Shown piece after piece: positions 22,463 to 64,000 of a stretch of DNA of 64,000 bases (position 1 is the stretch's first letter; each line of letters opens with the position of its first letter). The notes below the pieces were generated by a model. That model had not been told where the DNA came from. It made no database searches and saw only the letters and a list, made by a program, of their open reading frames with translations. The translations under genes were made by a program, and so were the position numbers. Origin of the DNA: Nitrospirota bacterium (lineage in GTDB: Bacteria > Nitrospirota > Thermodesulfovibrionia > UBA6902); the NCBI GenBank assembly GCA_016208905.1, contig JACQXG010000039.1, positions 3,439-67,438 on the forward strand, in the 5' to 3' direction.

Positions 22463-22565
22463 AGAGTTCAGAGTTATGAGTTATGAGTTATAAATCAGAG
22501 AATGATCGCAAGAAATAGGTTACATTCTTAATTCTTAACTCTTGACTCTTGACTCGTAACTCTTT
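22463..22565. repeat. inverted pair of heptanucleotide tandem arrays (gagttat x3 and aactctt-type), forming a hairpin
   Basis: Array 1 reads agagttcagagttatgagttatgagtta and array 2 reads ttaactcttgactcttgactcgtaactct. The pgpA TTG start lies inside array 2. Confidence 0.75.
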
Positions 22566-32051: not shown

Positions 32052-32112
32052 AAGTGAGAAGTGGGAAGTAAGAAGTGAGAAGTAAAGAAAACGCCTTGAA
32101 CTTCCTTCTTAC
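32052..32112. repeat. heptanucleotide tandem array (gaagtga-type) with inverted partner
   Basis: aagtgagaagtgggaagtaagaagtgagaagtaaag ... acttccttcttactt. The same unit occurs in frame inside murD. Confidence 0.75.
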
Positions 32113-51404: not shown

Positions 51405-51622
51405 ATACTCAAGAAGAAAATTTATTTATAGATGTAGTATTCCTTAGTAATGTAATATATCAATAATGGAAATTATTCTGAGTTGATGACATTATAGCTT
51501 TGATACGCTTTGTTGACAAGTATTTTTTTGTGGTAAGAGGGTATAACAATATAATATAAAATAAAAAACTATTACCAGAAAGCTGTTTTGGCTTTTACCC
51601 GTGATATTTTTGCAGACAATTA

Positions 51623-52498
51623 TTAGCTTCGTGGATGATGCTTTTTGTGGATTTTCCTTAGTCTTTCAGGTGTGACTTTTGTATATATTTGAGTTGTTGA
51701 AATATCTGTATGTCCAAGCATTTTCTGAAGCGCTCTAAGGTCTGCGCCGCCGTCTAAAAGGTGGCTCGCAAAACAGTGCCTCAGAGTATGGGGGGATATT
51801 TTTATTGATAATTCATTCGAATATTTTTTAATTAACTGCCACAATCTCTGCCTTGTCATGGGTTTGCCGCCCTTGGCAAGAAACAGGAATTGACAGCTCT
51901 TTCTCTTTAAAAGTTGCAGTCTTGATTCTTCAATATATTTTTTAACTGTTGTCAGCGCGATTTCATTTACAGGCACTACTCGTTCCTTAGACCCTTTACC
52001 TGTTATGGTAATAAATCCTGCTTCAAAATTTATATCACACATTTTTATATTAATAACTTCACTGGCCCGCAAGCCGGATGAATAAATCATTTCAAGAATT
52101 GCCCTGTCCCGCAAAGAGAGATTGTTTCCTTCAGGTTTTTTTAACAATGAGAATATTTCATCTGTTCCGATGATTTTTGGAATGCGTTTCCATCCCTTTG
52201 GTGTAGAGAGGGTTTCAATTGGATCTTCTTTTATTATTCCTTCTGTCAGCATGAATTTGCAGAGACCGCGCAACGTAGCAATATTCCTTGCTAAAGTAGT
52301 GGTCTGATTTCCGGAATTACGAAGATGATTAACAAAGGATACAAGATCACTCTTATTAAAGCTTGTTATATTTTGTCCGCTTTCCTGCAAGAAATTGTTA
52401 AATTTCTGAATATCTCTCCTATATGCCTCTAATGTATTTGCCGAAAGCCCTTTTTCGACAGTCAGGTAATTAAGGAATTTCTCTATAATGTTAATCAT
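51623..52498 (-). CDS. xerD: tyrosine recombinase XerD/XerC family
   Basis: Has ...HTLRHCFASHLL...LGHTDISTTQIYTKV with the catalytic R-H-R-Y. The start is refined to MINIIEKFLNYL. Confidence 0.8.
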   Translation of the reverse strand: MINIIEKFLNYLTVEKGLSANTLEAYRRDIQKFNNFLQESGQNITSFNKSDLVSFVNHLRNSGNQTTTLARNIATLRGLCKFMLTEGIIKEDPIETLSTPKGWKRIPKIIGTDEIFSLLKKPEGNNLSLRDRAILEMIYSSGLRASEVINIKMCDINFEAGFITITGKGSKERVVPVNEIALTTVKKYIEESRLQLLKRKSCQFLFLAKGGKPMTRQRLWQLIKKYSNELSIKISPHTLRHCFASHLLDGGADLRALQKMLGHTDISTTQIYTKVTPERLRKIHKKHHPRS

Positions 52499-52714
52499 TA
52501 GTATCAGGATACATGATAGCGTGAGAGGGAAGCAAATCCAATCGCAAACGGCAAATTCCAACGAATTGAATAACTTTTTTTTTAATTATTTGAAACCATA
52601 ATTATTAAGTATAAAATTTAAAATTTAATATTGATTAATGTCCTATAAATGGTATCTATGGTTTCAATACACCACAAAATGTAGTAAATGTAAAAAAATA
52701 TTATTTTTTCTCTT

Positions 52715-52742
52715 GACAAGTATTAAAAACATAAATATACTC
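52715..52742 (+). promoter_or_regulatory. sigma-70-type promoter of the dcw cluster (TTGACA-16-TATACT)
   Basis: A near-consensus -35/-10 lying about 40 nt upstream of mraZ. Confidence 0.55.
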
Positions 52743-52753
52743 ATTTGTATTGG

Positions 52754-52778
52754 TGGGAGAAAGTGTCATAAAGTGGAG
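52754..52778 (+). promoter_or_regulatory. three direct GTGGG-like repeats spaced 10 nt apart, putative MraZ operator
   Basis: GTGGGagaaaGTGTCataaaGTGGA between the promoter and the mraZ ATG. It resembles the E. coli MraZ box architecture. Confidence 0.5.
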
Positions 52779-52783
52779 GAAAG

Positions 52784-53236
52784 ATGTCGGGATTTGCTGG
52801 AAAGTATTATAACTCTCTAGATCCAAAAGGTCGACTAATAGTACCCGCGCCTTTTCGTGATATCCTCTCCTCCATGAATTCCTCTAAGTTGATTATAACA
52901 AATGATGTGTTTGATAGGTGTCTATGTGCTTATCCAGTTGATGACTGGCAGTCGCTGATAGATAAGGTAAGTCAAAAGCCTCAGACAATTGATGCTGTTA
53001 AATATTTTATGCGCAGGGTAATCGGCTCTGCTGTCGAATGCGATATTGACAAGCAGGGCAGAGTACTTGTCTCTTCAGCGCTCAGGGTAGATGCAGGTCT
53101 CAATAGTGAGGTTGTTCTATTGGGTCTCGGTAATCGAATTGAAATATGGGACAAGAATGAATTTGACGGGGTGGCAGATCCGTCAAAGATAGACAAACAA
53201 TCTTTTAAAGAGGTATTTGCTAATCTTGGTTTGTAA
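52784..53236 (+). CDS. mraZ: transcriptional regulator MraZ
   Basis: LDPKGRLIVP and a second DxxxR repeat. Confidence 0.9.
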   Translation: MSGFAGKYYNSLDPKGRLIVPAPFRDILSSMNSSKLIITNDVFDRCLCAYPVDDWQSLIDKVSQKPQTIDAVKYFMRRVIGSAVECDIDKQGRVLVSSALRVDAGLNSEVVLLGLGNRIEIWDKNEFDGVADPSKIDKQSFKEVFANLGL

Positions 53237-53317
53237 GCTTATTACCAGAAAATGACAGATAAGAATATCACATATTTAGAGACTGATGGTTCAAACATTA
53301 ATTCACTTACCGTGTAA

Positions 53318-54193
53318 ATGGAAATTGTCCATGTCCCGGCAATGCTGGAGGAGGTTCTGGAGGCCTTGAAGATAAAGAGTTCAGGGATATATGTTGACGC
53401 AACTGTCGGATTGGGAGGGCATACTGAAGGCATTATGCAGCGTGCCGGGGAATGCACCTTAATCGGTATCGACAGAGACGATAAGGCAATTGAAATTGCC
53501 CGTGAGCGTCTAAGAGATTATAAAACAGTTCATTTTGTACGGGAAAGTTTTTCAAATATAGGAACTGCTGTCAGGAATCTGGGCTATGACAAGGTAAATG
53601 GGATTATCCTCGATCTTGGAATATCTGCTTTGCATCTGAAATCTGAGGGCAGGGGATTCAGCTTCCTTAAGGATGAACCTCTGGACATGAGAATGGACAG
53701 AAGACAGGCCCTAACCGCTGAAGCAGTGGTAAATAAATATTCTGAAAAGGCCCTTGCCGACATCATATGGCAATACGGAGAGGAGAGATTCAGCAGGAGG
53801 ATAGCAAGAGCAATAATTTATGCCAGACACATAAATCCGATCAGGTCTTGCGGAGACCTTGCCGGAATTATTGAAAAGTCAGTCAGAAGACGGGGACGGA
53901 TACATCCGGCAACCAGAACATTCCAGGCGCTCAGGATCGAGGTAAATAAGGAGCTTGAAGAATTGCCGATAGCCATAGAGACAGGGGCCGAACTGCTTGA
54001 TACAGGCGGCAGATTGTGCATTTTATCCTATCATTCACTCGAAGATCGTATAGTGAAGAATGCTTTTAAAAAACTGGCAGCGGAAGGCATCTTCAACATT
54101 ATCTCAAAAAAACCTTTAGTGCCAGGGCAACAGGAACGAAAATTAAATCCTTCATCAAGGAGCGTAAAACTAAGAGTGGGAGAAAAAATATGA
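53318..54193 (+). CDS. rsmH: 16S rRNA (cytosine1402-N4)-methyltransferase
   Basis: Has HVPAMLEEVLEAL...YVDATVGLGGH. Confidence 0.9.
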   Translation: MEIVHVPAMLEEVLEALKIKSSGIYVDATVGLGGHTEGIMQRAGECTLIGIDRDDKAIEIARERLRDYKTVHFVRESFSNIGTAVRNLGYDKVNGIILDLGISALHLKSEGRGFSFLKDEPLDMRMDRRQALTAEAVVNKYSEKALADIIWQYGEERFSRRIARAIIYARHINPIRSCGDLAGIIEKSVRRRGRIHPATRTFQALRIEVNKELEELPIAIETGAELLDTGGRLCILSYHSLEDRIVKNAFKKLAAEGIFNIISKKPLVPGQQERKLNPSSRSVKLRVGEKI

Positions 54194-54522
54194 CTGGCAG
54201 AAGAATGAGAAATAATAAAAAGAACAGAACTTTTATTAAGTTTGGTTTCTTTCTTTACCTCGGCTTTTCGTTATTTGCCACTGTTTGGCTGAGGGCTGCT
54301 GTTGTCAATCTGGAATACGAACTTGGTAAGATTGACAGGCTAAGGTCAGATTTCCTCAATGAGAGAAAAACGGTTGTTGCGCAAAGGGCAAGTTTTATTT
54401 CAACCGGGAATGTAGAAAGTGTTGCTATAAATAAACTCGGGATGAGCCATGCAGAGAGAGAGAATATATACTTTGTAACAAGGACAGCAGTTGCGGGTCC
54501 CCACAGGGCATCTGTAAAGTAA
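54190..54522 (+). CDS. ftsL: cell division protein FtsL
   Basis: A small single-TM coiled-coil protein lying between rsmH and ftsI. Confidence 0.65.
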   Translation: MTGRRMRNNKKNRTFIKFGFFLYLGFSLFATVWLRAAVVNLEYELGKIDRLRSDFLNERKTVVAQRASFISTGNVESVAINKLGMSHAERENIYFVTRTAVAGPHRASVK

Positions 54523-54636
54523 CGTTCTAACCGGCATTTATAGATGCAATAAGTTGAGTGCAATTTATGAAAATAATTGTTTTCTGGGACGAGGAATAGT
54601 ATCAGTAATCACTAAATAATATCTTTAAGCGAAACA

Positions 54637-56433
54637 ATGAGAAGAAGAATAAAAGAAAGAATTGAAACCAGAAAACTCTGGGACGAAGATCCTGTAAAGA
54701 TACCGCTTCAAAAAAGCAAAAAAAGGGCCATGGTGCTTGTGTCGGTAGTCCTTTTTTGTTTTGCCGCAATCTTTCTGCGTTTAATCAATCTGATGATTCT
54801 TGATCATGGCAAACTGTCGGAAAGGGCCGCGCAGCAGTACAATAAAGAAAAAGTCCTGACCCCTCAGCGTGGCGTGATATGGGACAGAAAGATGAAAGAG
54901 CTTGCCACGAACATCGAAACAAATTCTCTGTACGCAGTCCCTTCCCAAATAGAAAATATACGCACCCTGTCTTCGGAGATTGCGCCTATAATAAAGGTCT
55001 CCACAGGAGAGCTTGACGGTATGTTGTCTAAGAAGAAGAAAAAGTCCTTTGCGTGGGTTGCAAGGAGAATGGATTCGGACACAAGCCGAAAATTGGGCGA
55101 ACTGAAGGAGTATATCCAGGACGGCGAGATAGGTTTTGTGACTGAGCCGAAGCGCTGTTATCCGAAAGGGCAGATAGCATCGCATATTTTGGGTTTTTCA
55201 AATATCGATGATCACGGCATTGCCGGCCTTGAGCTTGTCTACAATGAGTACTTGAAAGGCGAGGTCAAAAGTGTCTCTGTCGGGGTCGACGCCCGCGGGA
55301 GGAGTATTGCCGGCGATATTAAAGAAGCTATGCCCGGCAATAATATCATTCTCACTATTGACGAGGGAATTCAGCATATTGTCGAGAGAGAGTTAACAAC
55401 TGCAATGGAGGAGTGGCAGGCGAAGGCCGCCGTAGCAATAATGATGGACCCCGCGACAGGTGAAATCCTTGCCCTTGCTAACAGGCCGACATACGATCCT
55501 AATATCCCGGCAGCGGCCGGAGCAGACGAAAAGAGAAACAGGGCGATTACCGATATCTATGAGCCGGGCTCTACCATGAAGTCGATCCTCGCATCTGCGG
55601 CGCTGGAAGAAAAGGCGGTCAGCCTGAGAGATATGTTTGATGCGTCGAGAGGCGCCATCACAGTAGGCGGGAAGACAATCCATGACGTTCACAGACACGG
55701 AGTGCTCAGCTTTCAGGAGGTCATTCAAAAATCTTCAAACGTCGGCGCGGTCAAGATCGGACAGAGGCTCGGTTCGGCGAAATATTATGAGTATATAAAG
55801 AAATTCGGCTTTGGAGATAAGACCGGCATCGATTTCCCCGGCGAAGTGAGAGGCATTGCAAGAAATGTTAAGAGCTGGTCGGGTACTTCACTTGCCGCCA
55901 TGTCAATAGGACAGGAAATTGGCATGACGCCACTACAGATGGTGAGGGCGTATTCAGCAATAGCAAACGGGGGCTTATTAATGAAACCCTATATAGTGTC
56001 TGATATAATTTCTCCTTCCGGCAAAGTTATTAAAAAGAATGTCCCTACTGAAGAAAGGCGGGTAATCTCCAAAGACACTTCCGATAGAATAAAAGACATA
56101 CTAAAAACAGTTGTTGAGGAAGGAGGGACTGCGCGGAAGGCAAGCATAAAAGGTAATCTGGTTGCAGGGAAGACCGGTACGGCACAGATATTCGATCCTA
56201 AGTCCGGCCGTTACTCCAGGGATAAATTTGTAAGTTCTTTTGTCGGCTTTGTTCCGGCAGATAATCCCAGGTTAGCGCTGATAGTAGTTGTTTTCGAGCC
56301 GAAGGGGGCCTCATATGGCGGGGTAGTCGCTGCCCCTGTGTTTAAAAACATTATCGAAAATACGCTCGTATATCTTGATGTTCCAATGGAAAAAGATGAA
56401 AACCGGATTGTGCTTGTCAGCACAAAGCAGTAG
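54637..56433 (+). CDS. ftsI: peptidoglycan D,D-transpeptidase FtsI (PBP3)
   Basis: Has STMK, SSN and KTGT motifs. Confidence 0.9.
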   Translation: MRRRIKERIETRKLWDEDPVKIPLQKSKKRAMVLVSVVLFCFAAIFLRLINLMILDHGKLSERAAQQYNKEKVLTPQRGVIWDRKMKELATNIETNSLYAVPSQIENIRTLSSEIAPIIKVSTGELDGMLSKKKKKSFAWVARRMDSDTSRKLGELKEYIQDGEIGFVTEPKRCYPKGQIASHILGFSNIDDHGIAGLELVYNEYLKGEVKSVSVGVDARGRSIAGDIKEAMPGNNIILTIDEGIQHIVERELTTAMEEWQAKAAVAIMMDPATGEILALANRPTYDPNIPAAAGADEKRNRAITDIYEPGSTMKSILASAALEEKAVSLRDMFDASRGAITVGGKTIHDVHRHGVLSFQEVIQKSSNVGAVKIGQRLGSAKYYEYIKKFGFGDKTGIDFPGEVRGIARNVKSWSGTSLAAMSIGQEIGMTPLQMVRAYSAIANGGLLMKPYIVSDIISPSGKVIKKNVPTEERRVISKDTSDRIKDILKTVVEEGGTARKASIKGNLVAGKTGTAQIFDPKSGRYSRDKFVSSFVGFVPADNPRLALIVVVFEPKGASYGGVVAAPVFKNIIENTLVYLDVPMEKDENRIVLVSTKQ

Positions 56434-56515
56434 TCATTAAGCTGGGACTAAAAAGACAGAGGCTTCGGGAAAAAGTAATAACTGACTTTGGAAATGGATT
56501 TCGTTAATCTGATAA

Positions 56516-58039
56516 ATGGTCGATTCAAAACTTTTAGAGGGTCTGAAGATAATATTCAAACACGGCCCCCGGGACAAGGAGATAAAAGGCATTGCCTATG
56601 ATTCCAGATTAGTCAAAAAAGATTTTCTTTTCGTGGCCGTCAGAGGATTTGCTGTAAACGGCCATGATTATATAAAGGATGCAGTAAACAGGGGGGCTAC
56701 CGTGGTAGTCGCAGAGCATCCGGTAAAAAAAACAGATTTAAGACAGTTTGGTATAGAAGAGGAACCCACATTTGTCTGCGTTCCCGACAGCAGGGAAGCG
56801 CTGGCCCTCATATCTGCTGCTTTTTACGGACATCCTTCTGATAGTTTGTCATTGATAGGAATTACAGGGACAAATGGAAAAACGACCACGAGTTTTATTA
56901 CGAAAAGTATAATCGACAGCGGAGGGGAAAATGCTGGTCTGTTGGGAACAATTTGTTATATGACAGGAGACAGGACTACGAATGCATTTAATACAACTCC
57001 GGAGTCATTAGACCTGCAAAGATATTTAAGCGAAATGACGGACAATAAACTGGAATATGCCGTTATGGAAGTTTCTTCACATGCGCTGGCACTCAAAAGA
57101 GTCCAGGGATGTTCTTTTAAGGTGGCTGCCTTTACAAACTTTACCCAGGACCATCTTGATTTTCACGGCACAATGGATGAGTACTTTAAGGCCAAGAGCA
57201 GGCTTTTCAATTATCTCGACGCAGACGGAACTGCTGTCTTAAACCGGGATGATAAAAGGGTAAGGACTATGGCCAGAAAACTGAATTGTAATGTAATAAC
57301 ATTTGGCATTGAAGAAGGGGCCATGATAAGGGCGGAGAATATAAGAGAGTCAGGGGCAAGGGGCAAGGGGCAAGGGGCGAGGGAAGGCGCATTTGGTATG
57401 TCATTTGACGTCAAAACACCAGAAGGAGGATTTGAAATCAATTCATCTTTTATCGGGCGTTTTAATGTCTTCAACATTCTTACATCTATCGGGATAGCGA
57501 ATGCACTGGGCTTTAATGAAGATATAATCCGGCAAGGAATAAAGGACGCGAAACCTGTTGACGGGCGGTTTGAAAACATTGACGAGGGGCAGAATTTCTT
57601 ATGCATTGTTGATTATGCCCATACGGAGGACGCGCTAACAAAGCTCATTGAAGAGGCAAGGGCCATAACGGGAAAGAGGATTATTACGGTCTTCGGATGC
57701 GGCGGCGACAGGGACAGGAGCAAAAGGCCGATAATGGGCGCCGTAGCCACGGAGTTGAGCGATATGGTTGTGATTACCTCGGACAACCCGCGCACAGAAG
57801 ATCCTGACGAGATTATAAGGGACATCGTAAAGGGAGTTAAAAAAAATAATTATACCGTACAACCCGGCAGGGAGGACGCCATTAAGGAAGCGATAGCAAT
57901 GGCAAGAGAAGGAGACACGGTGCTGATCGCGGGAAAAGGGCATGAGAACTATCAGGAGATTAAAGGGGTGAGGCATCACTTCAGTGATAAGGAGATATTA
58001 AAGAAGGAAATAAAGAAGCGATTAGCGGTAAGCGGATAG
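56516..58039 (+). CDS. murE: UDP-N-acetylmuramoyl-L-alanyl-D-glutamate--2,6-diaminopimelate ligase
   Basis: Has GITGTNGKTT, and DNPR indicating meso-DAP specificity. It carries an in-frame heptamer array at 57354-57388. Confidence 0.9.
   Translation: MVDSKLLEGLKIIFKHGPRDKEIKGIAYDSRLVKKDFLFVAVRGFAVNGHDYIKDAVNRGATVVVAEHPVKKTDLRQFGIEEEPTFVCVPDSREALALISAAFYGHPSDSLSLIGITGTNGKTTTSFITKSIIDSGGENAGLLGTICYMTGDRTTNAFNTTPESLDLQRYLSEMTDNKLEYAVMEVSSHALALKRVQGCSFKVAAFTNFTQDHLDFHGTMDEYFKAKSRLFNYLDADGTAVLNRDDKRVRTMARKLNCNVITFGIEEGAMIRAENIRESGARGKGQGAREGAFGMSFDVKTPEGGFEINSSFIGRFNVFNILTSIGIANALGFNEDIIRQGIKDAKPVDGRFENIDEGQNFLCIVDYAHTEDALTKLIEEARAITGKRIITVFGCGGDRDRSKRPIMGAVATELSDMVVITSDNPRTEDPDEIIRDIVKGVKKNNYTVQPGREDAIKEAIAMAREGDTVLIAGKGHENYQEIKGVRHHFSDKEILKKEIKKRLAVSG
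57354..57388 (+). repeat. in-frame heptanucleotide tandem array (ggggcaa x3-4) inside murE
   Basis: ggggcaaggggcaaggggcaaggggcgagggaagg encodes GARGKGQGAREG. Confidence 0.8.
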
Positions 58040-58060
58040 TCTATAGCCGCTCTTTTCTAA

Positions 58061-59467
58061 TTGCTAACAGCTGATTTTTTAAATATGGCTATATTGACTG
58101 TCGAAGACATTATTGAAGCAACAGGTGGAGAGCTTCTGTCGGAGGACTCTAAAACATTCAGCGGGGTCTCCATCGATTCCCGGAAGATATCTGAAGGCGA
58201 GGTTTTTTTTGCCATAAGAGGAGATAAATTTGACGGCCATGATTTTCTTACTAATGCTCTTGTAAAAGGCAGCGGTGCAATCGTGGGAATAAGGCCTGAA
58301 TCATTACCGGCAGGCAAGGTAATTATTTGTGTAAACGACACTCTCAGGTCTTTGCAGGATCTTGCGCATTTTCTGCGGATGAGACGAAAAATCCCGGTAG
58401 TTGCTGTTACCGGAAGCAATGGCAAGACTACAACAAAGGAAATGATTTACCAGATCCTGTCAGGGAAATATAGGACACTAAAAAATGAAGGGAATCTTAA
58501 TAACCATATTGGTCTGCCTTTAAGCCTTACGAGACTGCACCCGGATGACGAAGTTGTTGTGCTTGAAATGGGGATGAATGCATCAGGGGAAATAAGAAGG
58601 TTATGTGAAATAGCCGTGCCGAGCCACGGCGTTATAACAAACATTGGCTCTGCACATGTCGGCATGCTCGGCAGTTATGAGGCGGTCAGGGCCGCAAAAC
58701 TTGAAATCCTTGAGGGTTTGAGTGTCGCAGTGGTCAACGCAGATAATGATTTTTTAATGCAGGGCCTGGAACGGACAAAAGACTTTGAAGGGGAAATGAT
58801 TACTTTTGCAGTAAATAATGAGGCCCATGTCATGGCCAGGGACGTTCGCGCTACAAAGACGGGCAGTGATTTCTTACTTGAGATAAAAGGGAATGGCGGT
58901 GCAACCGTCAATCTGAAAGTGCACGGCCTTTTCAATGTGTATAACGCGCTTGCGGCATCAGCCGTGACTTTTTCACTCGGCATGAGTATTGATGAAATCA
59001 GGGCCGCGCTTGGGGCCTATAGCGGATTCCCGATGAGATTTGAAGTGATTGAAAAAAACGGTATTACTGTAATCAATGATTCCTATAATGCTAATCCTTC
59101 CTCAGTAGAAAAGTCGGTAAAAGAGCTCGTCCGTCTTGGCTCCGGGGGCAGGGTGGTGGCTGTCCTTGGCGACATGCGTGAGCTGGACGAATTTTCGGAA
59201 AAAGAGCACAGGGCCATCGGAAGAATGATATCTGAAACCGGAGTGGATGTTTTTGTGGCAGTCGGGGAAATGATGAATATGGCGGCAGAAGAAAGCGCGA
59301 GTGAGAAAAGCGGGGCTGCGGCCCCTGAGGTATTTACTTATATAGACGCTGATTCAGCAAAAGACAACATCATGGCTATTTTGAGACCGGGTGACACCGT
59401 ACTTGTAAAAGGTTCGAGGTCGATGACTATGGAAAAGATTATTGAGGGAATAACTGATGCTGTATAA
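58061..59467 (+). CDS. murF: UDP-N-acetylmuramoyl-tripeptide--D-alanyl-D-alanine ligase
   Basis: Has GSNGKTTTKEM, and the likely start is MAILTVEDI at about 58085. Confidence 0.9.
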   Translation: MLTADFLNMAILTVEDIIEATGGELLSEDSKTFSGVSIDSRKISEGEVFFAIRGDKFDGHDFLTNALVKGSGAIVGIRPESLPAGKVIICVNDTLRSLQDLAHFLRMRRKIPVVAVTGSNGKTTTKEMIYQILSGKYRTLKNEGNLNNHIGLPLSLTRLHPDDEVVVLEMGMNASGEIRRLCEIAVPSHGVITNIGSAHVGMLGSYEAVRAAKLEILEGLSVAVVNADNDFLMQGLERTKDFEGEMITFAVNNEAHVMARDVRATKTGSDFLLEIKGNGGATVNLKVHGLFNVYNALAASAVTFSLGMSIDEIRAALGAYSGFPMRFEVIEKNGITVINDSYNANPSSVEKSVKELVRLGSGGRVVAVLGDMRELDEFSEKEHRAIGRMISETGVDVFVAVGEMMNMAAEESASEKSGAAAPEVFTYIDADSAKDNIMAILRPGDTVLVKGSRSMTMEKIIEGITDAV

Positions 59468-60539
59468 ACTTATTTATTCCTTTCATGAGCTTTATTCTCC
59501 CTTAAATGTATTCAGGTACATAACCTTCCGGGCCGCCCTTGCAGTCATAACCGCGCTGTTAATTCATTTCTTATTGGCGCCATGGATTATTAAAAAGCTC
59601 AGAAAGGTCAGTTTTACCCAGTATGAAAGAGATGACGGGCCGAAGACCCATCTTCATAAAGCAGGCACTCCGACAATGGGCGGCATCCTTATTATTTTGT
59701 CTGTGCTTGCAAGTGTTTTAATGTGGGGAGATTTGAGCAATAAATTTATTTTAATAATGATGCTGGCAATAACAGGATATGGTTGTATCGGTCTGGCAGA
59801 TGACTATCTGAAGGTAATAAAGAAAGATTCGAAGGGGCTAAAGGGGTGGTATAAATTTACTTTACAGATTGTGCTTGCCATGGCCATAGGACTTCTGTTT
59901 TATCATGATCCGAATGATTTATATGTCGCAAAATTAAGCATCCCTTTTTTTAAAAAATGGCTGATTGATCTTGGATGGTTCTATATCCCTTTTTCCATCC
60001 TTGTGATTGTCGGCTCTTCAAATGCCGTTAACCTTACAGACGGCATAGACGGTCTTGCCATTGGACTGGTCGGCATTGCCTGCCTGGCCAACGGCGCGCT
60101 TGTTTATATATCGGGTCATGCTGGTTTTTCGCAATACCTCCATGTATTACACCTGCCCGGCGTAGGGGAGCTGACTGTTTTTTGCGGCGCCATGTTCGGG
60201 GCCTCTCTCGGTTTTTTGTGGTACAACAGTTATCCCGCGGAAATATTTATGGGGGATGTCGGCTCACTCGGGCTTGGAGGGGCGCTGGGAACACTTGCTG
60301 TAATTACAAAGCAGGAAATCGTTCTCGCTATTGTCGGGGGTATTTTTGTGATAGAGACCTTTTCAGTGATGATTCAGGTGGCCTCATTCAAAATGACCGG
60401 GAAAAGGGTCTTTAAAATGGCCCCGATTCACCACCACTTTGAAGCAAAAGGATGGCCGGAGCCGAAGGTAATAGTCAGATTCTGGATAATTGGTATAATA
60501 CTGGCGCTGTTAAGTTTGACGACGCTGAAGGTGAGATGA
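59457..60539 (+). CDS. mraY: phospho-N-acetylmuramoyl-pentapeptide transferase
   Basis: Has the DD..GLAIG and PIHHH(F) MraY motifs. Confidence 0.95.
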   Translation: MLYKLIYSFHELYSPLNVFRYITFRAALAVITALLIHFLLAPWIIKKLRKVSFTQYERDDGPKTHLHKAGTPTMGGILIILSVLASVLMWGDLSNKFILIMMLAITGYGCIGLADDYLKVIKKDSKGLKGWYKFTLQIVLAMAIGLLFYHDPNDLYVAKLSIPFFKKWLIDLGWFYIPFSILVIVGSSNAVNLTDGIDGLAIGLVGIACLANGALVYISGHAGFSQYLHVLHLPGVGELTVFCGAMFGASLGFLWYNSYPAEIFMGDVGSLGLGGALGTLAVITKQEIVLAIVGGIFVIETFSVMIQVASFKMTGKRVFKMAPIHHHFEAKGWPEPKVIVRFWIIGIILALLSLTTLKVR

Positions 60540-60548
60540 AAAAGAGGT

Positions 60549-60626
60549 ATCAGCAATCAGGGATCAGCAGTCAGGACTTCGATAATTTTAAGACTGACAG
60601 CTTACAGCTGAAAGCTGATAGCTTAT
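60549..60626. repeat. inverted pair of heptamer arrays (atcagca-type and gctgaya-type) in the mraY-murD spacer
   Basis: atcagcaatcagggatcagcagtcagga ... gactgacagcttacagctgaaagctgatagcttat. Confidence 0.75.
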
Positions 60627-60629
60627 AAA

Positions 60630-62156
60630 ATGATACAGGTAGAAGAAAAGAAAAATAAATTTAAGGGCAAAAAAGTGCTCGTTGTCGGTCTTGCAAGAAG
60701 CGGCACCGGGGCGGCCAACCTTCTTGTTGAATTAGGGGCCAAGGTAACAATTACCGACAGGAAATCGCCCGGTTCTTTAGAAGATCAAATAAATAAATTG
60801 CTGCCGGCTGTCAAGTTCATAGAAGACAGCAAAGCCGCGGACATTATTGATTCACTCGACTTAATAGTTATCAGTCCCGGGGTGCCTCTATATGTTCCAT
60901 TCCTTGTTAAGGCAAGTATAAAAGGGATACCTGTTATCGGCGAGCTTGAGCTCGCGTATCAGGTAATAAAGGGGCAAGGGGCAAGGGGCAAGGGGCAAGA
61001 GGAGTTTATCGGCATTACCGGCACGAACGGGAAATCTACGGTCACTACGCTTGTTGACCTTATGCTGAGAGAAGCAGGGTACAATACACTGTTAGGTGGG
61101 AATATCGGTAATGCATTGACAGAAGAAATTTTAAAATGGGGCAAAGGGCAAGGGGCAAGGGGCGAGGGAGAAGAAACAACGGATCCGTCATCCGTCACCC
61201 GTCACCCGTTACCTGATTTTATCGTTGCGGAGATATCAAGTTTTCAGCTTGAAACAATAGAGGAATTCAGGCCGAACATTGCGGCTATTCTTAACATAAC
61301 TCCGGACCACCTTGACAGGTATAACAGCATGAGCGATTACATAGATGCAAAGGCAAGGATTTTTGAAAAACAGACACCGGAAGATTTTTTGATCATTAAT
61401 GCGGATGATCCGGAGATAGCAAAAGTGAGAAGTGAGAAGTTGGAAGTAAGAAGTGAAAAACCAAAAACTATTTATTTCAGCCGGACGAAAGAGATGGAAG
61501 GCGCATATTTAAGAGATGGAATAATTTATTGCAATTTTGCCCACTTCTCCCTTCCCGCTTCTCCCTTCCCGCTTATATCTCAGAATGAGATAAAAATTAA
61601 GGGAGCGCACAATCTTGAAAATGCCATGGCGGCTTCTTTGATGGCTCTGATCTCAGGATGCAGTCCAGCTGCCGTCAGGACCGTATTGAAGACTTTTCCC
61701 GGACTTGAACACCGGATTGAATTTGTTGATGAAGTCAATGGCGTCAGATTCATAAATGATTCAAAAGGCACAAACGTAGGCGCTGTTGCCAAATCCCTGG
61801 AAGACTTTAACGACGTAATCCTGATTATGGGGGGGTTGGATAAAGGGAATGACTTTTCGATATTGCGGGATTTGATAGAGAAAAAAGTTAAAGTCCTCAT
61901 TTTAATCGGCAAGGCAAAAGAGGTCATTGCAAAGGCGTTGGGCGCGATAACTGAGACGCATCAGGTGTCTGATCTCGGAGAGGCGGTTGCATTATCAATG
62001 TCAAAAGCCTCTGCAGGTGATGTTGTAATGTTATCGCCGGGTTGCGCCAGCTTTGACATGTTTAAAGACTTTGAAGACAGGGGAAGGAAGTTTAAGGAAG
62101 CGGTAGAAGAGTTAAGAGTGAACAGGAATATATTTTCCAGCACTGACACTATTTGA
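60630..62156 (+). CDS. murD: UDP-N-acetylmuramoylalanine--D-glutamate ligase, about 50-60 aa longer than usual because of in-frame repeat insertions
   Basis: The GITGTNGKST P-loop is present and the protein is colinear with MurD, but with low-complexity inserts encoded by heptamer arrays. Confidence 0.9.
   Translation: MIQVEEKKNKFKGKKVLVVGLARSGTGAANLLVELGAKVTITDRKSPGSLEDQINKLLPAVKFIEDSKAADIIDSLDLIVISPGVPLYVPFLVKASIKGIPVIGELELAYQVIKGQGARGKGQEEFIGITGTNGKSTVTTLVDLMLREAGYNTLLGGNIGNALTEEILKWGKGQGARGEGEETTDPSSVTRHPLPDFIVAEISSFQLETIEEFRPNIAAILNITPDHLDRYNSMSDYIDAKARIFEKQTPEDFLIINADDPEIAKVRSEKLEVRSEKPKTIYFSRTKEMEGAYLRDGIIYCNFAHFSLPASPFPLISQNEIKIKGAHNLENAMAASLMALISGCSPAAVRTVLKTFPGLEHRIEFVDEVNGVRFINDSKGTNVGAVAKSLEDFNDVILIMGGLDKGNDFSILRDLIEKKVKVLILIGKAKEVIAKALGAITETHQVSDLGEAVALSMSKASAGDVVMLSPGCASFDMFKDFEDRGRKFKEAVEELRVNRNIFSSTDTI
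60971..61003 (+). repeat. in-frame heptamer array (ggggcaa x4) in murD, preceding the P-loop
   Basis: Encodes KGQGARGKGQEE. Confidence 0.8.
61137..61213 (+). repeat. in-frame double heptamer array (ggggcaa-type, then ccgtcay x4) in murD
   Basis: Encodes GKGQGARGEGEETTDPSSVTRHPLP. Confidence 0.8.
61425..61458 (+). repeat. in-frame heptamer array (gtgagaa/gtaagaa) in murD
   Basis: Encodes VRSEKLEVRSEK. The same unit occurs in the intergenic array at 32052. Confidence 0.8.
61543..61577 (+). repeat. in-frame heptamer array (cttctcc/cttcccg x2) in murD
   Basis: Encodes HFSLPASPFPLI. Confidence 0.75.
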
Positions 62157-62157
62157 T

Positions 62158-63348
62158 ATGAATACTAAACACACAAGGAGCATTTTAATATCAGTGCTGA
62201 TACTCGTAGGGATCGGGATCATGATGGTTTACAGCTCCACGGCCCTCATGTCCATGAGGGAAAGTGGAAGCGGATTTAATTTTTTATTGAAACATCTTTT
62301 TACAGTATGCATTGGAACAGTTGTAATGATATTACTGTCAAAAATAGATTATCTGAAATACAGGCCGGTGGTTTATGTCCTGTTAGCGGTCTCCTTTGTA
62401 TTATTGGTATTGGTATTTATGCCCGGTATTGGAATTTCGGCCAATGGCGCAAGGAGATGGCTGAGGCTGTGGCCGACTACATTTCAGCCCTCAGAGCTTG
62501 TAAAGGTGGTCATGGTGATTTTTCTGGCGGATTATATGGACAGGAACATTCACAGGATGAGGGATTTCCGTTACGGTATTATGGTCCCTGTCGGTGTCAT
62601 GCTCATCTTCCAGGCTGTTATTATCAAGCAGCCTGATTTTGGCGCTGTGATGAGTCTGGGGATACTTACAGTAGGCCTGTTAATACTGGGGGGCGCAAGA
62701 TTAAGCCACATAGGCTCACTTGTACTTCTCGCTCTTCCGGCTGTTTATATGCTAATTATGACTTCGTCATACCGGTCGAAAAGATTATTGTGTTTTCTCG
62801 ATCCGTGGAAGGACTCGCAGGGCTGCGGGTTTCAACTCGTTCAATCTTTTATCGCCTTTGGGAACGGACGGTTTATGGGTCTCGGTCTGGGAGGCAGCAA
62901 GCAGAAATTATATTTTTTGCCGGAGGCCCATACCGACTTTATTTTCTCCCTGATTGGTGAAGAGCTTGGTCTGGTCGGGGCAGTGGTTGTGCTCTGTATT
63001 TTTGTCTGGCTTTTTCTGAAAGGTTTCCAGGTCTCGGCGGGGACCAGGGACCCTTTCAGTTACTTTCTGACATTGGGACTAACTATGTTGATCGGAGTGC
63101 AGGCTATTATAAATATTGCCGTATCAACAGGCTTAATGCCGACAAAGGGACTGCCCCTGCCTTTTATAAGTTACGGCGGATCAGCGCTTCTCGTAAATAT
63201 GGCGGCTGTGGGGATACTTATAAATATCGCTGCAAAAAATGAAGACGTCACTTCCCGTCAAACCTCTCATTTTCAGTTTAAAGGGGAAAACAAAGGCGGA
63301 TTGTTAAGGACGGGAAGGGCGGATTCCTGGAGTTACAGGCGGAGATGA
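62158..63348 (+). CDS. ftsW: peptidoglycan glycosyltransferase FtsW
   Basis: SEDS family, 10 TM, in the dcw position. A C-terminal tail extends to overlap the murG start (ATGA). Confidence 0.9.
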   Translation: MNTKHTRSILISVLILVGIGIMMVYSSTALMSMRESGSGFNFLLKHLFTVCIGTVVMILLSKIDYLKYRPVVYVLLAVSFVLLVLVFMPGIGISANGARRWLRLWPTTFQPSELVKVVMVIFLADYMDRNIHRMRDFRYGIMVPVGVMLIFQAVIIKQPDFGAVMSLGILTVGLLILGGARLSHIGSLVLLALPAVYMLIMTSSYRSKRLLCFLDPWKDSQGCGFQLVQSFIAFGNGRFMGLGLGGSKQKLYFLPEAHTDFIFSLIGEELGLVGAVVVLCIFVWLFLKGFQVSAGTRDPFSYFLTLGLTMLIGVQAIINIAVSTGLMPTKGLPLPFISYGGSALLVNMAAVGILINIAAKNEDVTSRQTSHFQFKGENKGGLLRTGRADSWSYRRR

Positions 63349-64000
63349 AAATTATTATTGCAGGAGGAGGAACAGGAGGGCATATTTTCCCGGCGTTAGC
63401 AATAGCGAAAGAATTAAGAAACGCGCTTGCTGACGCGGTAGTTACTTTTGTCGGGACTTCCAGGGGGATGGAGTCCAGGATTATCCCCAAAGAAGGGTAT
63501 GATGTAAGATTCATAAGGTCTGAAGGTCTTGTGGGCAAGAGTATTTTTAAAACTATTAAATCAATTTTTAAAATCCCGGCGTCTTTAAAGGATTCGCGTG
63601 ACTTGCTGAAGGAAATCAAACCGGACCTGGTTTTGGGTGTCGGAGGATACAGTTCAGGCCCTGTGGTTTTAAGCGCGAAGATGATGGGTATCCCTACAAT
63701 CATCCATGAACAGAATACGCTGCCGGGTCTTGCCAACAGGATTCTGGGCAGATTTGTTGACACTGTTGCCGTTACATATCATGAGAGCATTAAATATTTT
63801 CCGCGGGACAAAACCTATATGACCGGCAATCCCATAAGGGCGGAAATATTGAAAGGCGATAGAGAAAGAGGCTGCGAGAACTTCAGTCTTGACAGGGACC
63901 GGTTTACGATATTTGTATTCGGCGGCAGTTTAGGCGCAAGCAGTATTAACAGCGCAGTGGGGGAGGCGCTGGTATACCTTGAACCTCTTAAAAACCATAT
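63345..64000 (+). CDS. murG: UDP-N-acetylglucosamine--N-acetylmuramyl-(pentapeptide) pyrophosphoryl-undecaprenol N-acetylglucosamine transferase, 5' part; the gene continues past the window end
   Basis: MKIIIAGGGTGGHIFPALAIAKEL is the MurG N-terminus. Confidence 0.9.
   Translation, partial: MKIIIAGGGTGGHIFPALAIAKELRNALADAVVTFVGTSRGMESRIIPKEGYDVRFIRSEGLVGKSIFKTIKSIFKIPASLKDSRDLLKEIKPDLVLGVGGYSSGPVVLSAKMMGIPTIIHEQNTLPGLANRILGRFVDTVAVTYHESIKYFPRDKTYMTGNPIRAEILKGDRERGCENFSLDRDRFTIFVFGGSLGASSINSAVGEALVYLEPLKNH

Follow-up and report, generated by a model that had tools for sequence, protein, structure and literature searches.

An in-frame GGGGCAA heptamer array in murE of a Nitrospirota bacterium and its relation to heptanucleotide repeats in Thermodesulfovibrionia

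The sequence analysed here, referred to below as the window, is a stretch of 64,000 nucleotides (nt) from a Nitrospirota bacterium (GenBank assembly GCA_016208905.1, contig JACQXG010000039.1, positions 3,439 to 67,438 of the forward strand). It includes a dcw cluster with the genes mraZ, rsmH, ftsI, murE, murF, mraY, murD and ftsW, and our subject is a short tandem array of the heptamer GGGGCAA that lies in frame within murE, an essential single-copy gene. The murE coding sequence (56516..58039, forward strand) encodes a UDP-MurNAc-tripeptide synthetase of 507 amino acids (aa). This open reading frame (ORF) is 100% identical to protein P0001, which NCBI names as MurE of a Nitrospirae bacterium metagenome-assembled genome (MAG), and it matches solved MurE structures with E-values of 1e-84 to 1e-100. 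The Mur-ligase Pfam domains PF01225, PF08245 and PF02875 are all on record for P0001 and the P-loop GITGTNGKTT is found in the window MurE sequence; the three domains, the P-loop, the dcw context and the fold match agree in identifying the gene as murE. The genomes nearest to it by MurE are MAGs of Thermodesulfovibrionia. An antisense ORF across the array region (57211-57606) was treated as spurious.

The murE array reads as three GGGGCAA units followed by GGGGCGA and GGGAAGG, with tca before it and cgc after it. The original prediction, made from the sequence alone, quoted this string correctly, its coordinates (57354-57388) are one base high and the 35 nt lie at 57353-57387. The core of the array, composed of the three GGGGCAA units and GGGGCGA (57353..57380, forward strand), carries four G-tracts on the sense strand and is recovered by inspection, by Tandem Repeats Finder (TRF) and by a test against chance. 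The fifth unit, GGGAAGG (57381..57387), is degenerate, and the 3' end GGGGCAAGGGGCGAGGGA is common to this array and to one of the arrays in murD (site 2, below). TRF reports a period of 7 with 4.6 copies and 96% matches over 57352-57383. With four good units and a degenerate one, the array has the tandem structure of a heptanucleotide simple sequence repeat (SSR). The 14-mer GGGGCAAGGGGCAA, allowing at most one mismatch, has nine matches in the window, every one of which is in murE or murD; in shuffled sequences the mean was 0.02 and the maximum 1, and none of 100 shuffles reached nine. The heptamer GAGTCAG (57347..57353) flanks the array in the same register. No complementary C-rich partner that could form a hairpin with the array occurs within 300 nt.

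The array is read as the twelve codons G280-G291 (GARGKGQGAREG, 57353..57388). An AlphaFold2 model of the window MurE, built on 26 homologues, has a mean predicted local distance difference test score (pLDDT) of 85 and template modelling scores of 0.80-0.85 to MurE of S. aureus, M. tuberculosis, T. maritima and E. coli. In this model the array codons lie where strands 271-279 and 294-301 of the central, ATP-binding domain are joined, at a beta-hairpin tip, and residues 281-291 have pLDDT below 50. The sequences of solved MurE structures align over the site with 7-11 gap positions. A suggestion made with the original prediction was to look for coincidence with surface loops; in the model the array is a disordered hairpin tip, which would be exposed to solvent and distant from the active site. 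Since this segment is disordered in the model and absent from solved structures, MurE can carry the array.

Homologues of MurE, all predicted proteins of 495-523 aa, were compared in a full alignment of 26 sequences and in a loop comparison of 120. In the former, the segment between the motifs AENI and FDV is the sole hypervariable part of MurE. In the latter, the loop varies in length from 6 to 38 residues; outgroup loops have 6-7 residues and the clade always retains some insert that is longer than these. MurE orthologues do not generally share a Gly-rich segment encoded by non-repetitive DNA, the finding that would have spoken against a repeat origin; the orthologous site instead holds heptamers that differ between relatives. 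These are CAGCAGT in L002 and L003, AGAAGTC or GAAGTCA in L004 and L009, GGGGCAA in L005, L082 and L083, and GGGACAA or GGAACAA in L006, and a degenerate remnant is found in L001. There is no array at this site in P0004, P0011 or the outgroups. In some relatives (L004 6822-6900, L005 6837-6900; P0045, P0053, P0059 and P0073) the array at the MurE site is followed, in frame, by a GC-rich palindrome (GGGGCGGGGTGACCCCGCCC, CCCCCCCTTTGCAAAAGGGGGG) that encodes peptides such as PPFAKGG and PLIPSLARGDKEG.

The closest alleles differ by whole units. Set out in 7-nt register, the window reads GAGTCAG, three copies of GGGCAAG, GGGCGAG and GGAAGGC, and L082 reads GAGTCAG, GGACTTG, three copies of GGGCAAG and GGGGGGC. 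The L081 allele reads GAGTCAG, GAGTCAG and GGGGGGC and is exactly 21 nt (three units, 7 aa) shorter; its protein, P0004, is 95% identical to that of L082, P0003, outside the loop. The flanking GAGTCAG, which is doubled in this shorter allele, is akin to the AGTCAGN arrays at the murE site of L002, L003, L004 and L009. Compared with the nearest short allele, the extra residues make up 7/12 of the murE array peptide. That the array is an in-frame insertion in murE, as had been proposed, is borne out by the reading of G280-G291, by the gap of 7-11 residues in solved structures, by the short outgroup loops and by the in-register difference of 21 nt from L081.

Further close pairs differ by 7 or 14 residues in the loop (P0007/P0011, P0009/P0006, P0045/P0073, P0056/P0060, P0059/P0035 and P0113/P0119). 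Strict quantisation of loop length was rejected: differences of 7 or 14 residues are enriched, being found in 6 of the 17 pairs with at least 0.9 identity, but indels of other sizes occur as well. MurE proteins that are 95-97% identical elsewhere can have very different loops. The window and L005 have the same first 24 nt in the murE array, although codons of the conserved four-fold type match at the third position in only 41% of cases; the array thus does not follow the evolution of ordinary coding sequence. Frameshifted (off) alleles of murE were not found among the 120 homologues, all of which are of full length and can be aligned before and after the loop, in predicted-protein databases that under-sample broken genes.

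A near-identical strain is represented by two Logan contigs of run SRR12113406, L206, which covers window positions 51523-60964, and L207, which covers 61005-64000. Their identities to the window are 99.81% and 99.50%, with 5 single-nucleotide differences in total over about 12.4 kb, four of them in the first 9.4 kb. Each length difference between the window and these contigs is inside a heptamer array. The sister strain has 7 nt more in an intergenic TAAAATT/TAATATT array upstream of mraZ (52612..52632) and 7 nt more, a single CTAATTG, in the murE-murF spacer, where the window has the heptamers CTAATTG CTAACAG CTGATTT (58057..58077). It also has 14 nt more, two AAGAGTT units, at the 3' end of murD (window 62107-62120, L207 1103), which shifts the frame and brings an earlier stop, so that the C-terminus ending in EELRVNRNIFSSTDTI becomes EELRVKS. 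The murE array and murD sites 2-5 are unchanged, and the MurE protein is identical. Because this separate assembly reproduces murE exactly, with no DNA difference across the gene, the array is not an assembly artefact.

One difference between the two strains is of another kind. At murD site 1 (window 60965-61001, L206 9457-9540) the sister strain has GTTATGA-type and CCCATTA-type arrays, encoding VVMSYELRVMSKKDNIKSPSPVTHYPLPA, in place of the four GGGGCAA units. The alternative insert is longer, resembles that of L001 and has no GGGGCAA seed within it, and the difference looks like a cassette-style replacement, to judge from the two sequences. L206 and L207 both break exactly at this site and the alternative allele is joined to the remainder only through 31-mers, which suggests a graph branch from co-occurring alleles.

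The murD gene (60630..62156, forward strand) encodes 508 aa, as against about 440-450 aa for solved MurD, and contains five internal in-frame heptamer arrays and another at its 3' end. The original prediction held that the unit in murE also occurs in murD, and it is present there at two sites. Site 1 (60969..60999), just before the P-loop, has four exact GGGGCAA units. Site 2 (61138..61168) reads GGGGCAA, AGGGCAA, GGGGCAA, GGGGCGA and GGGA; 31 of its first 32 nt are identical to the murE array, with which it has the variant end GGGGCGA-GGGA in common. Site 3 (61185..61213) is a CCGTCAC array encoding PSSVTRHPLP, in a stretch of about 29 residues without counterpart in the alignment with solved MurD. 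Site 4 (61423..61456) is an AAGTGAG array (KVRSEKLEVRSE), the unit of which recurs in an intergenic array at 32052-32083. Site 5 (61540..61574) is an array of CCCGCTTCTCCCTT, or CCCNCTT, encoding SLPASPFPL. The array at the 3' end is AAGAGTT AAGAGTG (62107..62120). The five internal arrays, which carry four different units and lie on the forward strand, all fall on gaps or unaligned stretches relative to the solved MurD 3lk7 and account for most of the approximately 55 extra residues.

Hypervariable inserts are found at the same murD positions in every relative examined, and none are found in murF, mraY or ftsW. At murD site 2 the relatives L081, L082 and L083 have inserts of CAGCAGT type or others; their GGGGCAA is only in murE. 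No exact match to the window's MurD protein is on record; the corresponding search with FtsW was successful and led to the 3' part of murD in the sister strain. The spacer between mraY and murD (60545..60623) holds two inverted heptamer arrays, of ATCAGCA and CTGACAG type, which are predicted to fold as a long imperfect hairpin of -30.4 kcal/mol (z = -5.2). This hairpin ends 6 nt before the murD start codon and could therefore occlude the ribosome-binding region.

Arrays of period 7 are in excess throughout the 64-kb window. TRF finds 20, compared with a mean of 1.33 and a maximum of 6 in 30 dinucleotide-preserving shuffles, an excess of about 15-fold, and other periods are mostly near the shuffle expectation. 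About half of the arrays sit in the non-coding part, which makes up about 14% of the window; an apparent coding array at 22526 in fact lies upstream of pgpA. Those that are internal to genes and in frame cluster in murE, which has one, and murD, which has five. The same units turn up at sites that are not homologous: AAGGGGC occurs three times and AAGTGAG, AACTCTT and ACAGCTG twice each, and among 19 arrays there are 6 pairs with units of an identical class where 0.17 are expected (P ~2.5e-8). No Rfam family at gathering score and no tRNA gene was found in the window.

The same population is seen in relatives, whose dcw regions have 3-8 period-7 arrays per 10 kb; most other phyla have 0-1. Units are commonly shared between sites within one genome, whereas orthologous sites differ between genomes, and the unit vocabulary is common to genomes whose MurE proteins are only 66-82% identical. 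The murE array thus belongs to a population with the features of heptanucleotide SSRs, which are tandem units, a period-7 excess (over 64 kb of genome), reuse of units at dispersed loci and whole-unit variation at sibling arrays. A few dcw loci of Bacteroidota (L022, L024, L033, L043 and L080) are also high, with 3-7 period-7 arrays per 10 kb, which fits the sporadic phylogenetic distribution reported for heptamer repeats.

Outside these genomes, metagenomes were scanned with the pattern (GGGGCAA)3GGGGC, which cuts off the distribution of copy number from below. At least 120 metagenomic contigs carry the array; the remaining figures in this paragraph and the next are for the matches listed, which range from 38 to 75% GC. 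On low-GC contigs, about four GGGGCAA units lie in frame in enzymes assigned by Pfam as ThyX, CobQ, LeuRS, LarC, MnmA, GatB, a HemN-like radical-SAM enzyme, uracil-DNA glycosylase and TsaD. The arrays often lie between Pfam domains, as in MnmA, GatB and the HemN-like protein. Ten low-GC contigs with a long ORF across the array (at least about 300 aa) were counted; in nine of them the sense strand is the G-rich one, and the encoded peptide is therefore the hydrophilic GARGKGQ rather than LPLAPCP. In a metagenomic TsaD (L132 7559-8875, reverse strand) an in-frame insert of about 75 residues splits the TsaD domain; here G-rich heptamer arrays are followed by a complementary C-rich GGGGCAA array, forming an inverted pair.

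Exactly four exact units are present in 67 of 119 metagenomic arrays, and five in 11. The flanks of these 119 arrays show a decaying 7-nt periodicity or blocks of the variant units GTGGCAA, GGGACAA and GGAGCAA. A defined mobile element was considered and rejected: the aligned flanks have no conserved ends, and flanking direct repeats of 7-9 nt are no commoner than in permuted controls. An association with phages was likewise set aside, as only two viral contigs carry the array. The view that the arrays form a common repeat family, and are not the product of independent low-complexity drift, is supported by the period-7 excess, the recurrence of units, the 24-nt identity with L005 and the in-frame copies in unrelated metagenomic enzymes. 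This family behaves like a common vocabulary of SSR units and not a discrete element with defined ends.

Canonical G-quadruplex (G4) motifs are reported to be depleted from bacterial mRNAs. The murE array has the tracts of such a motif, with GGGG-CAA three times, GGGG-CGA and then GGG, that is at least four tracts of three or more G separated by short loops. When G-quadruplex terms are included, ViennaRNA predicts a four-tier G4 with a minimum free energy of -40.6 kcal/mol, compared with -15.7 kcal/mol without these terms. The array has strong sense-strand G4 potential, and G4s may form there. A slipped strand stabilised by a G4 could account for the preference for about four units.

Several known systems resemble the murE array in part. 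Among long SSRs, those with heptanucleotide units are the most frequent class in several groups of bacteria (Mrazek et al. 2007, summarised in PMC4679880). The prokaryotic long SSRs with such units, together with the cyanobacterial short tandemly repeated repetitive (STRR) type, share with the arrays in the window the head-to-tail 7-nt units, the period-7 excess, the reuse of few units, the mostly intergenic location and the whole-unit variation between strains. They differ in that units that are not a multiple of three are, in the earlier literature, rare in coding regions, whereas the Nitrospirota arrays lie in frame in essential genes at conserved hotspots. A search of the available literature on heptamer repeats in Nitrospirae/Nitrospirota or Thermodesulfovibrionia found no report.

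The G4-forming heptamers GGGNATC of Xanthomonas and GGGGA(C/T)T of Nostoc are mainly intergenic; ORFs contain fewer of them than expected, above all on the coding strand (Rehm et al. 2015, PMC4692102). They are similarly G-rich and dispersed, show a pronounced peak at four units and sometimes form inverted tandem pairs. The murE array departs from them in its unit, GGGGCAA, and in lying on the sense strand of an ORF, as do the copies in murD and about nine in ten of the low-GC in-frame metagenomic cases listed, and its G4 is a predicted one. The TAACTGA direct repeats of Beggiatoaceae, Cyanobacteria and Bacteroidetes are of unexplained origin and are suspected of horizontal spread (MacGregor 2015, PMC4679880). 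Like the arrays in the window they occur, in 2-6 copies, in short spacers that directly precede start codons, with a few tolerated copies in ORFs, one at the end of MurG. However, they have one dominant unit with stops in all forward frames and their ORF copies are at protein ends; here there are many units, and stop-free ones lie mid-protein in loops.

Rickettsia palindromic elements (RPEs) and other in-frame miniature inverted-repeat transposable elements (PMC10969869) are also repetitive DNA found in frame in unrelated housekeeping enzymes, at positions compatible with the fold and encoding a family-specific peptide. The murE array shares the permissive in-frame site, but an RPE is a palindrome of about 150 bp with a conserved consensus and the murE array is a pure tandem repeat of 28-35 nt, with no palindrome or inverted repeats and no target-site duplication. 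It is not a member of the RPE family, because it lacks the size, palindrome and consensus of that family. The phase-variable contingency SSRs of host-adapted pathogens are also hypermutable, with units that are not a multiple of three and a frame shift on change of copy number, as seen at the murD 3' end. Those repeats are in surface or restriction-modification genes; here the genes are essential and housekeeping, the length variants are in frame and no on/off alleles of murE were found, so neither the off alleles nor the dispensable or surface host gene of a contingency SSR is present.

We consider it likely that the murE array is a heptanucleotide SSR, one of the lineage-wide hypermutable 7-nt arrays of Thermodesulfovibrionia, that came by chance to lie in the murE frame and that most likely has no role for MurE. 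With a unit of 7 nt the ribosome runs through all three phases of the unit in turn, and every three units (21 nt) add one heptapeptide period, GARGKGQ; the loop changes in steps of seven residues because 7 and 3 share no common factor. GGGGCAA is free of stop codons in every sense phase and encodes only small or charged residues. Arrays vary by whole units, gained and lost most probably through replication slippage, and now and then an entire array is replaced. Within genes, selection would keep only those net lengths that are divisible by 3 nt, at sites such as loops or linkers that tolerate an insert. This filter on frame would yield the 7-residue length steps and a lasting, clade-wide indel hotspot. 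The array is most likely a tolerated by-product, neutral for MurE.

Several observations weigh against this explanation in its simplest form. The exact GGGGCAA unit is at three sites in two neighbouring genes, which is not explained by pure slippage in situ. Slippage also does not explain the 24-nt identity with L005 at a third-position match of 41%, nor the swap at murD site 1, where four GGGGCAA units have replaced an unrelated insert of 77 nt between strains that are 99.8% identical. Random tolerance would predict less clustering than is observed, murD having five internal arrays and murF, mraY and ftsW none. Finally, the murE array has the same copy number in both near-identical strains; because it is unchanged between them, ongoing slippage at this copy is inferred from its sibling arrays and from the differences between species. 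Copying, recombination or selection at the nucleotide level must act besides slippage.

The swap at murD site 1, the variant end common to murE and murD site 2, and the sharing of units within a genome point to some templated copying or recombination. An existing hotspot may have received a copy of a GGGGCAA block from another array through non-allelic gene conversion, template switching while a fragile array was repaired, or recombination with a different strain, and the arrays would then be exchangeable cassettes that spread from murE to murD site 2 and then to murD site 1. We regard this as possible but not probable as the explanation of the array, and rate it as a secondary contributor. 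At murD site 1 the alleles are unrelated in strains that match at 99.8% on both sides, and the alternative allele contains nothing from which GGGGCAA could have been seeded; but this allele is at the end of a de Bruijn contig and may come from a co-occurring strain or be a graph artefact. The restriction of GGGGCAA to murE in L081, L082 and L083 suggests a later spread in the lineage of the window, and units shared within genomes, at sites that differ between genomes, are what copying would produce. The mode of exactly four units in 67 of the 119 listed metagenomic arrays and the abrupt boundaries of the low-GC in-frame cases are in keeping with a copied block. Against this, those 119 arrays have no conserved flanks, terminal repeats or target-site duplications, many are embedded in degenerate or variant units as growth and decay in place predicts, and whole-unit indels such as those of +7, +7 and +14 nt are what slippage classically produces. 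The murE copy itself gives no direct evidence for or against copying.

A bolder proposal is that of an actively exchanged cassette-like system. Templated repair or gene conversion, in addition to slippage, would copy each genome's small vocabulary of units into fixed fragile hotspots, loops and linkers of essential enzymes among them (murE, then murD site 2, then murD site 1), and the units would be conserved across divergent genomes for an action at the nucleic-acid level, as G4s or as multi-site platforms for a single-strand-binding protein, that tunes dcw translation. We give this proposal less credence than copying as such.

A function in DNA or RNA may also be considered apart from any copying. 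The arrays, including the sense-strand (G4CAA)4, would be cis elements, acting as G4s or as platforms for a single-strand-binding protein of Csp/S1 type, and would pause ribosomes or alter mRNA stability and so tune expression of the dcw operon or co-translational folding. Its nucleotide sequence is conserved in murE although the protein is at its most variable there, and a very stable G4 is predicted. Four units, the minimum for a G4, are preferred, as also reported for other G-rich heptamers (Rehm et al. 2015, PMC4692102). Intergenic arrays directly upstream of start codons and the strong hairpin before murD recall the TAACTGA repeats (MacGregor 2015, PMC4679880), and the unit vocabulary is held in common by genomes with quite divergent MurE (66-82%). 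However, the same MurE site can hold units without G4 potential, such as CAGCAGT and AGAAGTC, or no array at all (P0004, P0011 and the outgroups), and close strains have exchanged or lost whole arrays with no evident compensation. The window has no Rfam match and no candidate binding protein was identified. We consider a function of this kind unlikely.

A function at the level of the protein is very unlikely. The Gly/Arg/Lys-rich loop would then be an adaptive, flexible element of the MurE surface, for example one that contacts other Mur ligases or divisome proteins. The loop is positively charged and, in the model, probably surface-exposed, and the clade always keeps an insert longer than the outgroup loops. 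But the loop sequence is unconstrained, being wholly different in MurE proteins that are otherwise 95-97% identical, its length ranges from 6 to 38 residues, and the peptide simply follows from the resident heptamer. The same GARGKGQ peptide is found in unrelated enzymes. Scarcely credible at all is a phase-variation switch toggling murE by frameshift, or an assembly error: a single-unit change would shift the frame, the unit not being a multiple of three, and the 14-nt change at the murD 3' end alters the C-terminus, but murE is essential and single-copy with full-length, alignable homologues (predicted proteins), and the murE array is reproduced in the separate Logan assembly, while related MAGs obtained in other studies have arrays at this site too.

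The preferred explanation therefore remains a tolerated heptanucleotide SSR. Heptamer SSRs themselves are already known; what is new here is the presence of several in-frame arrays at conserved hotspots of essential Mur ligases across a class, with turnover at the strain level and a canonical sense-strand G4 motif. Essential genes would be expected to be cleared of repeats whose unit length is not divisible by three. The arrays are a natural map of where conserved enzymes tolerate insertions. They also call for caution in annotation and phylogeny, as such loops are not homologous residue by residue. The locus offers a tractable system for the origin, spread and frame filtering of 7-nt repeats, and for the compatibility of sense-strand G4 motifs with the translation of essential genes.

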